IMG/VR virus record: IMGVR_UViG_2711768069_000014
Strand: one strand, 5' to 3'
Length of the DNA: 4,413 nucleotides
Source: a virus
Taxonomy: Duplodnaviria; Heunggongvirae; Uroviricota; Caudoviricetes
Shown piece after piece: positions 3,072 through 4,413 of the stretch (positions are counted from its first letter, which is position 1; the number at the start of each line of letters is the position of its first letter). The position numbers and the translations under genes were made by a program. Under the pieces are notes generated by a model that had not been told where the DNA came from, searched no databases, and was given only the letters and a program-made list of their open reading frames with translations.

Positions 3072-4385
3072 ATGACTGTAAAAATTTCTGGCGTGCTTAA
3101 AGATGGCACAGGAAAACCAGTACAGAACTGCACCATTGTGCTGAGGGCCAGACGAACCAGCAGCACGGTGGTGGTGAACACGGTGGCCTCTGAAAATCCG
3201 GATGAAGCCGGTCGTTACAGCATGGACGTTGAGTACGGTCAGTACAGCGTCATTCTGTTGGTGGAAGGATTCCCGCCGTCACATGCCGGGACCATCACCG
3301 TGTATGAAGATTCTCAACCCGGTACGCTGAATGATTTTCTCGGTGCCATGTCGGAGGATGACGTCCGGCCGGAGGCACTGCGTCGTTTTGAACTGATGGT
3401 GGAAGAAGCGGCGCGTCACGCTGAGGAGGCGAAGAAGAATGCCGGAGAGGCGGAGACGTCCGCGAGGAATGCCGGCATATCAGCCAGTCAGGCGGAAGCG
3501 AGCGCGGCAAATGCTGACACTTCAGCAGGGGAGGCATCGGAGTCAGCCCGGCAGGCGGCAGAAAGTGCAGCCGCTGCAAAGAAGTCAGAGGAAGCGTCCT
3601 CGTCCTCGGCCTCTGAGGCCGCTCAAAAAGCCAGTGAGTCATTACAAAGTGCAGCAGATGCTGAGTTGTCAAAAAAGACGGCAGAAAGTGCAGCCGGTAA
3701 TGCAGCCAGGGATGCAACGACCGCAACAGAAAAAGCCCGGGAGTCAGCAGAAAGCGCACAGTCAGCGGAACAAAGCAGGATAGCGGCGGAAGAAGCCGTA
3801 AACCGAATCCCGACCGTGGTGGGGCCTCCCGGGCCAAAGGGGGAACAGGGGCCCGCGGGTCCTCAGGGGCCGAAGGGAGATAAAGGAGAGCGTGGCGACA
3901 CCGGCCCGGCAGGGGCAACCGGTGAACGGGGACCGGCAGGTGATGCTGGTCCGGCAGGCCCGCAGGGGCCGAAAGGTGACATGGGAGAGCGGGGAGAGAC
4001 CGGTCTGACGGGAAATGCAGGTCCACAGGGTCCAAAGGGAGATACCGGTGCGGCAGGCCCGGCAGGCCCACAGGGACCGAAAGGAGAAACAGGTGCGGCT
4101 GGCCCGGTGGGGGCAACCGGACCTCAGGGACCGAAGGGCGACCCGGGGGAGACACAAATACGGTTCCGTCTGGGGCCGGGAAACATTATTGAGACAAACA
4201 GCAATGGCTGGTTCCCGGATACAGATGGCGCACTCATCACCGGACTGACCTTTCTTGACCCCAAAGATGCCACACGGGTTCAGGGGTTTTTTCAGCATTT
4301 GCAGGTCAGGTTTGGTGACGGGCCGTGGCAGGATGTTAAGGGGCTGGATGAAGTGGGCAGTGATACAGGCAGAACAGGAGAATGA
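3072..4385 (+). CDS. stf: Side tail fibre protein (lambda Stf-like N-terminal domain, Ala/Ser/Glu-rich linker, collagen-like Gly-X-Y domain, ~78-aa C-terminal region), 437 aa
   Basis: ATG at 3072 preceded by GGTGGA (3061-3066). The N-terminus [22 protein letters not shown]...[16 protein letters not shown]...[25 protein letters not shown] closely resembles the lambda Stf (orf-401) N-terminus as I recall it. This is followed by a low-complexity A/S/E-rich segment and 36 consecutive G-X-Y triplets. Stop TGA at 4383-4385. Confidence 0.88.
3370..3815 (+). other. Ala/Ser/Glu-rich low-complexity (probably alpha-helical / coiled-coil) linker-coding region of stf
   Basis: Translation is dominated by A, S, E, K, Q (for example [61 protein letters not shown]). 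It contains an 18-bp perfect direct repeat CGGCAGAAAGTGCAGCCG at 3556-3573 and 3679-3696, in frame. Confidence 0.6.
3822..4151 (+). repeat. Collagen-like Gly-X-Y repeat-coding tract within stf (36 uninterrupted triplets)
   Basis: Translation reads [110 protein letters not shown]. The G-P-Q-G-P-K-G-(D/E) unit recurs five times, with imperfect DNA-level repeats. Confidence 0.85.
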
Positions 4386-4386
4386 C

Positions 4387-4413
4387 ATGAATATACTAAA
4401 AAAACTTATGCAG
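4387..4413 (+). CDS. 5' end of a downstream ORF (MNILKKLMQ...) coupled to stf; function unknown, possibly a distal fibre or fibre-assembly component
   Basis: ATG at 4387 lies 1 nt after the stf stop and is preceded by AGGAG (4376-4380) at 6-nt spacing. Only 9 codons are in the window, so the call rests on the start context alone. Confidence 0.4.

Follow-up and report, generated by a model that had tools for sequence, protein, structure and literature searches.

The 4,413-nt stretch of DNA analysed here (the window; Caudoviricetes record IMGVR_UViG_2711768069_000014) ends in a 437-aa tail fibre gene and, one nucleotide beyond its stop codon, the beginning of a second open reading frame (ORF) that is 89 codons long in relatives. 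We propose, with a probability of roughly 0.7, that these form a complete collagen-like fibre of the EPclA type and a coupled small gene, whose product is a paralogue of the fibre's own C-terminal domain, PfC, and may act as a fibre accessory. Judged by its domain content, the 437-aa fibre is complete and not truncated, and by the same kind of evidence the small gene is a stand-alone paralogue (type S) of the fibre's terminal PfC (type F). Allelic variation shows the small gene to be a true protein-coding gene under strong purifying selection. The locus is a further copy of a cassette already described in 2012 and 2016, and as such its novelty is low. What is new is the strong purifying selection, a diverged pair in a baseplate-type cluster whose two genes overlap at the junction, and the lack, in the searches described below, of natural fusions and of signs of a frameshift, an invertible segment or a diversity-generating retroelement. 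The puzzle posed by the cassette is that a copy of the fibre knob is held under strong purifying selection and yet is listed as dispensable in the laboratory. These fibres are borne by prophages that move Shiga toxin (Stx) and type III secretion system (T3SS) effector genes among E. coli, and because they sit on those prophages, binding at their distal end bears on the spread of virulence genes.

The fibre gene

The preliminary description of this DNA had read the fibre as short, ending about 78 residues after its collagen domain, and had asked whether a longer ancestral gene had been split. The part after the collagen comprises 76 residues, and lambda Stf, at 774 aa, is indeed the longer protein. 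The two have the PfN N-terminal anchor in common, whereas the window fibre carries a collagen shaft and a 64-residue knob where lambda has a long distal region. Split or loss does not account for this length: 437 aa is the standard EPclA length, and the protein ends in the PfC trimerisation domain. In fact, the Pfam families PF08400, PF01391 and PF06820 span the fibre end to end (Table 1). Residues 1-93 (window 3072-3350) match chains named 'Tail fiber protein' in PDB entries 9e7m and 9mgh (E 5e-50; 24 chains in the 2 entries), so that a solved structure exists for the end by which fibres of this type attach. Among the full-length copies in related loci, 437 aa is the most frequent length (37/57). 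The collagen region is polymorphic in length across loci L004-L083, where fibres range from 386 to 441 aa in whole-triplet steps.

The EPclA fibres of enterohaemorrhagic E. coli (EHEC), for example ECs2717 and ECs1808, share with the window fibre the four-part architecture, the 437-aa length, a coil of about 116 residues, a collagen region of 111 and PfC at residues 363-426, and they occupy the same genomic place, after J and lom (PMC3368898). Thirteen of the 15 EPclA entries of strains EDL933 and Sakai are 437 aa long (two flagged defective) and the other two 407 aa; the coil measures 116 aa in all 15 and the collagen 111 aa in the 437-aa entries (PMC3368898). There is no difference of substance between these proteins and the window fibre, which is another allele. 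Recombinant EPclA (Sakai ECs2717, of the same architecture and length) formed dumbbell-shaped trimers when expressed alone, and the isolated PfC (residues 363-426 in the construct) proved to be a trimerisation domain able to nucleate the collagen helix anew (Ghosh 2012, PMC3368898). By likeness to ECs2717, a dumbbell homotrimer would be expected of the window allele as well. The coiled-coil conformation of its PCoil region is here read from composition, a trimeric coiled coil having been shown in the same study, which does not discuss the gene downstream of the fibre.

The small gene, its junction and its history

An ORF does begin one nucleotide after the fibre stop codon (TGAcATG) with its own AGGAG, just as first noticed. 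Relative to stf it is in the +1 frame, and its first 27 nt fall within the window. Two relatives supply the remainder: contig L095, identical to the window's last 180 nt, continues to an 89-aa ORF and then a terminator hairpin, and the downstream ORF of E. coli O157:H7 strain 493/89 (L001) also has 89 codons. Codons 1-9 in the window are identical to the N-terminus of the PHROG 576 / Sp5 ORF68 family. The 89-aa protein matches PHROG 576 over its whole length (E 7e-60) and PF06820 over residues 28-89 (E 5e-36), and it shares 35% identity with the PfC of the fibre itself (E 9e-14). Its N-terminus is a peptide of about 27 residues, MNILKKLMQRLCGCGKHDDREHG..., followed by the second, diverged PfC domain; a Pfam scan (E up to 1) gave nothing beyond PF06820, and NCBIfam gave nothing. 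Predicted tryptic peptides of the protein include LGPADILESDENGIIPEQDR, VITQVVILDADK and ADGTWENIGGMK.

The small gene shows the pattern of a stand-alone PfC, lying directly downstream of a PfC-ended fibre with its own Shine-Dalgarno (SD) sequence and ATG. The idea that the downstream ORF would be fibre-related and co-translated with the fibre is thereby upheld, in the form of a PF06820 paralogue behind a coupled junction. The idea that it encodes a separate, large receptor-binding tip falls, as the product has 89 aa and PF06820 alone. The ORF did turn out to be very short, and 437 aa did turn out to be a complete conserved fibre, both of which count in part against the reading offered in the preliminary description; it is not, however, an unrelated cargo gene. 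A lipoprotein or secreted 'receptor-masking' role was also rejected on reading the N-terminus, MNILKKLMQRLCGCGK: it lacks a hydrophobic core, and its L-C-G-C departs from the canonical lipobox.

Of 84 tblastn matches (83 loci), 80 have exactly the junction GGAGAATGACATG, a sameness that reflects relatedness rather than independent conservation, all 83 loci being at least 96% identical. The junction is identical in the phage Sp5 (TGA-C-ATG), and a remnant in Citrobacter rodentium has TGA-T-ATG. In the diverged pair (L088/L091) the SD is AGGAGG and the ATG of the small gene overlaps the upstream gene by 14 nt; indeed, tight coupling has been kept independently there. The C. rodentium copy (L087 3470-4300) is degraded: its fibre has an internal deletion and in-frame stops, and its small gene has lost one base in an A run and restarts at a later ATG (78 aa). 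It keeps the TGA-N-ATG spacing and the terminator hairpin, and an NleG gene comes next.

The +1 frame of the small gene is open for 46 codons upstream of its ATG (window 4249-4386), overlapping the 3′ end of the fibre gene, and extended versions of the small gene in GenBank are inconsistent, at 102-129 aa (ASU11 gp5c, phage 2851 gene 72, VT2-Sakai p61). The 89-aa start is the credible one, because in the diverged pair the frame of the small gene meets a stop one codon ahead of its ATG. Annotation of the small gene as a 102-129 aa ORF overlapping stf, or as a Tfa chaperone, should be avoided. One might imagine that a programmed +1 frameshift or stop bypass at GAA-TGA-C gives some fibres two PfC knobs: the upstream frame is open, UGA-C is a weak stop context, and the SD-like AGGAG just upstream looks superficially like the signal of prfB. 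In prfB, however, the SD lies 3 nt upstream of the shift codon, whereas here it abuts that codon. Furthermore, GAA in the P site cannot re-pair in the +1 frame (AAU), and the diverged pair, with its stop one codon before the ATG and its 14-nt overlap, leaves no room for a fusion. For Sp5, Mondal et al. (2016, PMC5155283) likewise found no frameshift signal fusing ORF67 and ORF68. We consider recoding barely credible.

Across 61 distinct alleles of the small gene, the ratio of nonsynonymous to synonymous polymorphism (pN/pS) was 0.12; taken separately, the PfC part gave 0.05 and the N-terminal peptide 0.37. The corresponding value for the fibre PfC was 0.21 in intact 437-aa genes, an earlier value of 0.51 having been inflated by defective copies and discarded. 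These values bear on the possibility that an ancestral fibre with two PfC domains was split by mutation and that the downstream piece is its decaying remnant. Tandem PfC-like modules do occur within one polypeptide (P0230, described below), and many prophage copies are degraded, that of C. rodentium L087 among them. The small gene, however, has kept its full 89 aa in 81 of 84 matches and is under purifying selection, its N-terminal peptide is a conserved feature of its own, and the split state is common to the distant cassette and hence old and maintained. A decaying remnant is therefore very improbable. An ancient split is possible as the origin of the small gene, which concerns its history and not its present function.

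The diverged relatives point to a considerable age for the pair. An exhaustive hidden Markov model (HMM) search of 1.84 billion representative proteins gave only 97 matches, among them P0223, a 79-aa homologue that is 59% identical to the small protein and has a similar N-terminus, MTIFKKIKHCLFGCDK. Its gene follows that of a 212-aa protein with a fibre-type PfC C-terminus (FQxxQVxFGDGxWQD), within a Baseplate_J/DUF2612 cluster. The diverged small protein (L088/L091) retains an M-x-I-x-KK...L-x-G-C-x-K N-terminus. When aligned, the two upstream PfC domains cluster with each other, as do the two small proteins, and this grouping places the separation of types F and S before the divergence of the E. 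coli and baseplate-type cassettes. The diverged cassette (GCA_008387015.1) had no megablast match in complete E. coli genomes. Long, multi-stretch HMM matches to SprB and CarboxypepD_reg repeat proteins were weak and reflected repetitive beta-sandwich sequence, and we did not take them as homologues. A scan of genome contigs yielded just two short contigs, one of E. albertii and one of 725 nt assigned to Xanthomonas pisi, and added nothing to the genomic context; the latter (L090, X. pisi DSM 18956) carries a copy of the E. coli small gene at 92% identity, most likely through assembly contamination.

The small gene looks to be always accompanied by a PfC-ended fibre. Phage records matching at 80% identity or more numbered 296 for the fibre query and 296 for the small-protein query, with a near-identical breakdown by organism; the equality is one of counts and organism names, the two lists not having been intersected. 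We found no genome with fibre residues 361-437 and the downstream product in one protein; the joined forms seen were deletion chimeras, rare and with few members. In both word-indexed searches all matches to either PfC type were 134 aa or shorter; these searches returned no full-length fibre, and 56 of the 176 small-protein matches were unlisted, which limits their power against fused forms. The long matches in the search of representatives were ordinary EPclA proteins or few-member deletion chimeras. Chimeric ORFs of the small gene (P0063, P0065, P0076, P0087 and P0175) are rare and have fragments of collagen, J, Lom or other prophage genes joined on. The fragments are joined to it within a few codons of 'PADILES' (residues 33-40), perhaps a site at which deletions or recombination events repeatedly end.

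Such chimeras touch on a suggestion made, with reserve, by Mondal et al. (2016, PMC5155283), namely that ORF68 is an intragenomic reservoir for fibre variation, the small ORF being mainly a stored alternative 3′ end for the fibre gene. It would be well placed for this, being homologous to the fibre end, in the same orientation, directly downstream and listed as non-essential in Sp5 (PMC5155283), and exchange has left rare products in which the small protein's N-terminus is joined to a fibre PfC C-terminus (P0175) or collagen directly to a type-S PfC (P0063). At 54% identity in DNA, however, the two PfC segments are too different for frequent homologous exchange. A reservoir does not explain the strong selection at the protein level (pN/pS 0.05), nor why the 59%-identical homologue retains its own SD and ATG and a non-collagen N-terminal peptide. 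A full-length fibre with a type-S end was absent among 176, 96 and 97 matches, a comparison of limited power since 56 of the 176 are unlisted and the word-indexed searches gave no full-length fibre of any kind. We regard storage as quite unlikely to be what the gene is for.

Two other mechanisms of fibre variation were rejected. For an invertible host-range segment of the Mu Gin or P1 Cin type, a 16-nt match attributable to chance is the sole inverted pair, the PfC copies are in direct orientation, and no invertase is annotated. For a diversity-generating retroelement, the PfC segments are 54% identical in DNA and no reverse transcriptase occurs in the annotated neighbourhood.

Possible roles of the small protein

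How might a coupled copy of the knob act? Ribosomes ending the fibre would re-initiate, or be recruited, at the adjacent SD and ATG, so that the small protein would be made with the fibre. Because PfC is a trimerisation module, the small protein too is probably a trimer. The PfC-S trimer might dock non-covalently on or beside the terminal PfC-F knob, mimicking the tandem PfC modules of single polypeptides, and would tune adsorption or stability without being needed for assembly. Fibre end and small gene would travel as one exchangeable distal cassette between tail types.

The comparison with Sp5 is informative on this last point. Over its last 79 residues (collagen end, PfC and tail) the Sp5 fibre departs from that of the window at a single position, and the small protein of Sp5 shares 93% identity with the 89-aa query from E. 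coli. In Sp5 / VT2-Sakai, however, the cassette (ORF67-ORF68) sits on a 645-aa EPclB fibre of a short-tailed Stx2 phage, mid-operon and followed by tail genes, whereas in the window it sits on the 437-aa side fibre of a lambda-type tail and is followed, in relatives, by a terminator and T3SS effector cargo. The preliminary description had supposed that the distal part is modular and exchangeable, and this is supported by nearly the same fibre end and near-identical small ORFs on both EPclA and EPclB fibres. The diverged pair, on its 212-aa protein in a Baseplate_J/DUF2612 cluster, extends the modularity further.

According to Mondal et al. (2016, PMC5155283), the Sp5 fibre ORF67 (ECs1228) is essential, and ORF68 is listed among the non-essential late genes. 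A role as a dispensable fibre-associated accessory is the assignment that we put forward, tentatively, for the small protein. The nearest alternative, that it gives mild help in assembly, is inseparable from an accessory role on present data and seems to us rather doubtful. A stronger version makes it a Tfa-like chaperone, needed to fold or trimerise the fibre tip in the manner of lambda Tfa, T4 gp38 or Mu gpU. The lambda Stf/Tfa, Mu S/U and T4 gp37/gp38 pairs do resemble the cassette in having a small co-expressed gene directly after the fibre gene that moves with the fibre's distal end. The tightly coupled position directly after the fibre is the canonical one for such a partner, co-occurrence with PfC-ended fibres looks strict, and the lambda h434 imm21 record carries the label 'tail fiber assembly chaperone'. 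Unlike those partners, however, the small protein is paralogous to the terminal domain of the fibre itself, is dispensable where tested and stands outside the Tfa family (PF02413, Caudo_TAP), its only Pfam match at E up to 1 being PF06820 and NCBIfam giving none. Its predicted fold also appears to resemble fibre modules. Moreover, recombinant EPclA and PfC trimerise without the small protein (PMC3368898), and in Sp5 it is the fibre gene, not ORF68, that is listed as essential (PMC5155283). The chaperone offered in the preliminary description is thus not supported by any family match, and we think it unlikely.

Structure prediction is consistent with a fibre-module fold. AlphaFold2 (AF2), given a more diverse alignment, models the 89-aa protein as a six-stranded beta domain; averaged in blocks of 10 residues, the predicted local distance difference test (pLDDT) is 81-91 from residue 31 to 80 and 74 from 81 to 89. 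In a Foldseek comparison with BFVD, seven of the ten best matches were named tail-fibre or tail proteins, at scores (query TM about 0.5, E about 1e-2) that are suggestive but not significant. When the PDB was searched with a sequence profile, no structure of PfC emerged, and the only matches were chance ones to coiled coils. A precedent for adjacent knobs is P0230, a 565-aa metagenomic protein in which four modules of about 75 aa, each closing with a PfC-like motif (VVVLDAD...LQVRRADGTWxEIPALKG), stand in tandem ahead of collagen repeats. Fibres of this type share with the cassette the PfC-like motif VVxLDAD...L.VRxADGTW.EI..LKG and the association with collagen; their modules, unlike those of the cassette, are covalently linked, N-terminal to collagen and four or more in number.

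Several points weigh against an accessory role as proposed here. The window itself shows nine codons of the small gene, the full length being taken from near-identical relatives. Almost every E. coli copy has an identity of 93% or more, so that the pN/pS values come from limited and partly recombinant diversity. AF2 modelled a monomer, and its first run, on a shallower alignment, reached a pLDDT of 54 and was discarded. The small protein varies less than the fibre knob, when an outermost receptor-binding element would be expected to vary more. Any role would have to be subtle in the laboratory, because ORF68 is listed as non-essential in Sp5 and was not flagged as reduced. Finally, we infer both its presence in the virion and its binding to the fibre. 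The small protein is not reported in the text and one supplement of a virion proteomics paper on related podoviruses.

A more speculative elaboration would have the two genes encode a split double knob. A small-protein trimer would cap the fibre knob and help it to recognise a conserved receptor such as BamA, which has been proposed for short-tailed Stx phages with the same cassette, and the two genes would form a portable host-recognition unit of sipho-, podo- and baseplate-type tails. The 3′ end of the small gene and the terminator would further act as a recombination or attachment anchor for the exchange of T3SS effectors, an idea prompted by a 140-nt direct repeat that flanks a cassette of nleA and an integrase pseudogene in L001. 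We rate this whole scheme as improbable.

Neighbourhood of the cassette

The window holds three tail genes, complete or partial, all on the + strand (Table 1). J, lom, the fibre gene and the small gene together make up the distal end of the tail operon of a lambdoid prophage. A scan of the + strand between the hairpin at 3024-3053 and position 3072 found no sigma-70-like promoter, and transcription of the fibre and small gene is probably late and dependent on antitermination.

Table 1. Positions of the features discussed, numbered along the window
Feature	Position	Strand	Basis
Gene J, 3′ part (tail-tip host-specificity gene)	7..2250	+	747 aa in window; Pfam Ig_J, Ig_J_second, Phage_Tail_Tip, Ig_GpJ_C; gpJ label in relatives
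lom (Ail/Lom outer-membrane beta-barrel, 199 aa)	2321..2920	+	PF06316, E 4e-116
Terminator-like hairpin between lom and fibre gene	3024..3053	+	13-bp stem, then T run; terminator scan
EPclA-type collagen-like side tail fibre gene, 437 aa + TGA	3072..4385	+	Intact ORF, ATG start; Pfam; domain order and lengths as EPclA (PMC3368898)
PfN anchor domain, aa 1-133	3072..3470	+	PF08400, E 5e-68, profile positions 1-133 of 134
PCoil, Ala/Ser/Glu-rich coiled-coil shaft, aa 134-250	3471..3821	+	Composition A38 S22 E16; 8 L/V/I in 117 residues
Collagen triple-helix region, aa 251-361	3822..4154	+	37 uninterrupted Gly-X-Y triplets (longest run, single domain); PF01391
PfC-F, fibre C-terminal trimerisation knob, aa 363-426	4158..4349	+	PF06820, E 5e-35, full profile 1-64/64
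C-terminal tail of 11 residues, aa 427-437	4350..4382	+	Also holds the next gene's ribosome-binding site; sequence
Shine-Dalgarno AGGAG of downstream gene	4376..4380	+	6 nt before ATG; sequence
TGA-C-ATG coupling junction	4383..4389	+	TGA 4383-4385, C 4386, ATG 4387-4389; sequence
First 9 codons (MNILKKLMQ) of the 89-aa PfC-only gene	4387..4413	+	Remainder beyond window; relatives L095 and L001

Of 5426 complete E. coli genomes, 4728 had matches to the 1.5-kb region, and in 693 of them a single place covered at least 80% of it; the best match was O157:H7 strain 493/89 (L001), at 98% identity at the DNA level. The layout of a 437-aa fibre and a small gene also occurs in the inducible or laboratory phages 2851, ASU11 and lambda h434 imm21. 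In prophages of the siphovirus type, the small gene is followed by a strong hairpin and T run (-21.2 kcal/mol, z -5.6), which was seen by direct folding and had been overlooked by the terminator scanner. This hairpin is conserved, with variants in C. rodentium L087, in L088 and in L095. Beyond it lies T3SS effector cargo, for example NleG-like, NleA, NleH and NleF genes in L001 and NleB- and NleC-like genes in lambda h434. The lambda h434 imm21 phage (L094, OM418627, 1421-3005) has the same 437-aa fibre and 89-aa gene, then the NleB-/NleC-like genes. It is a classical laboratory hybrid phage and a tractable system for the small gene.

In L001 the last 72 nt of the 89-aa gene, the terminator and about 25 nt more are repeated. 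The two copies (7686-7824 and 11758-11897) are 92-93% identical, and the second lies 4.07 kb downstream of the first. These 140-nt direct repeats flank an nleG-like pseudogene, nleA and a tyrosine-integrase pseudogene that adjoins the second copy. The arrangement resembles a duplication of att type, or else an anchor for the recombination of effector cassettes.

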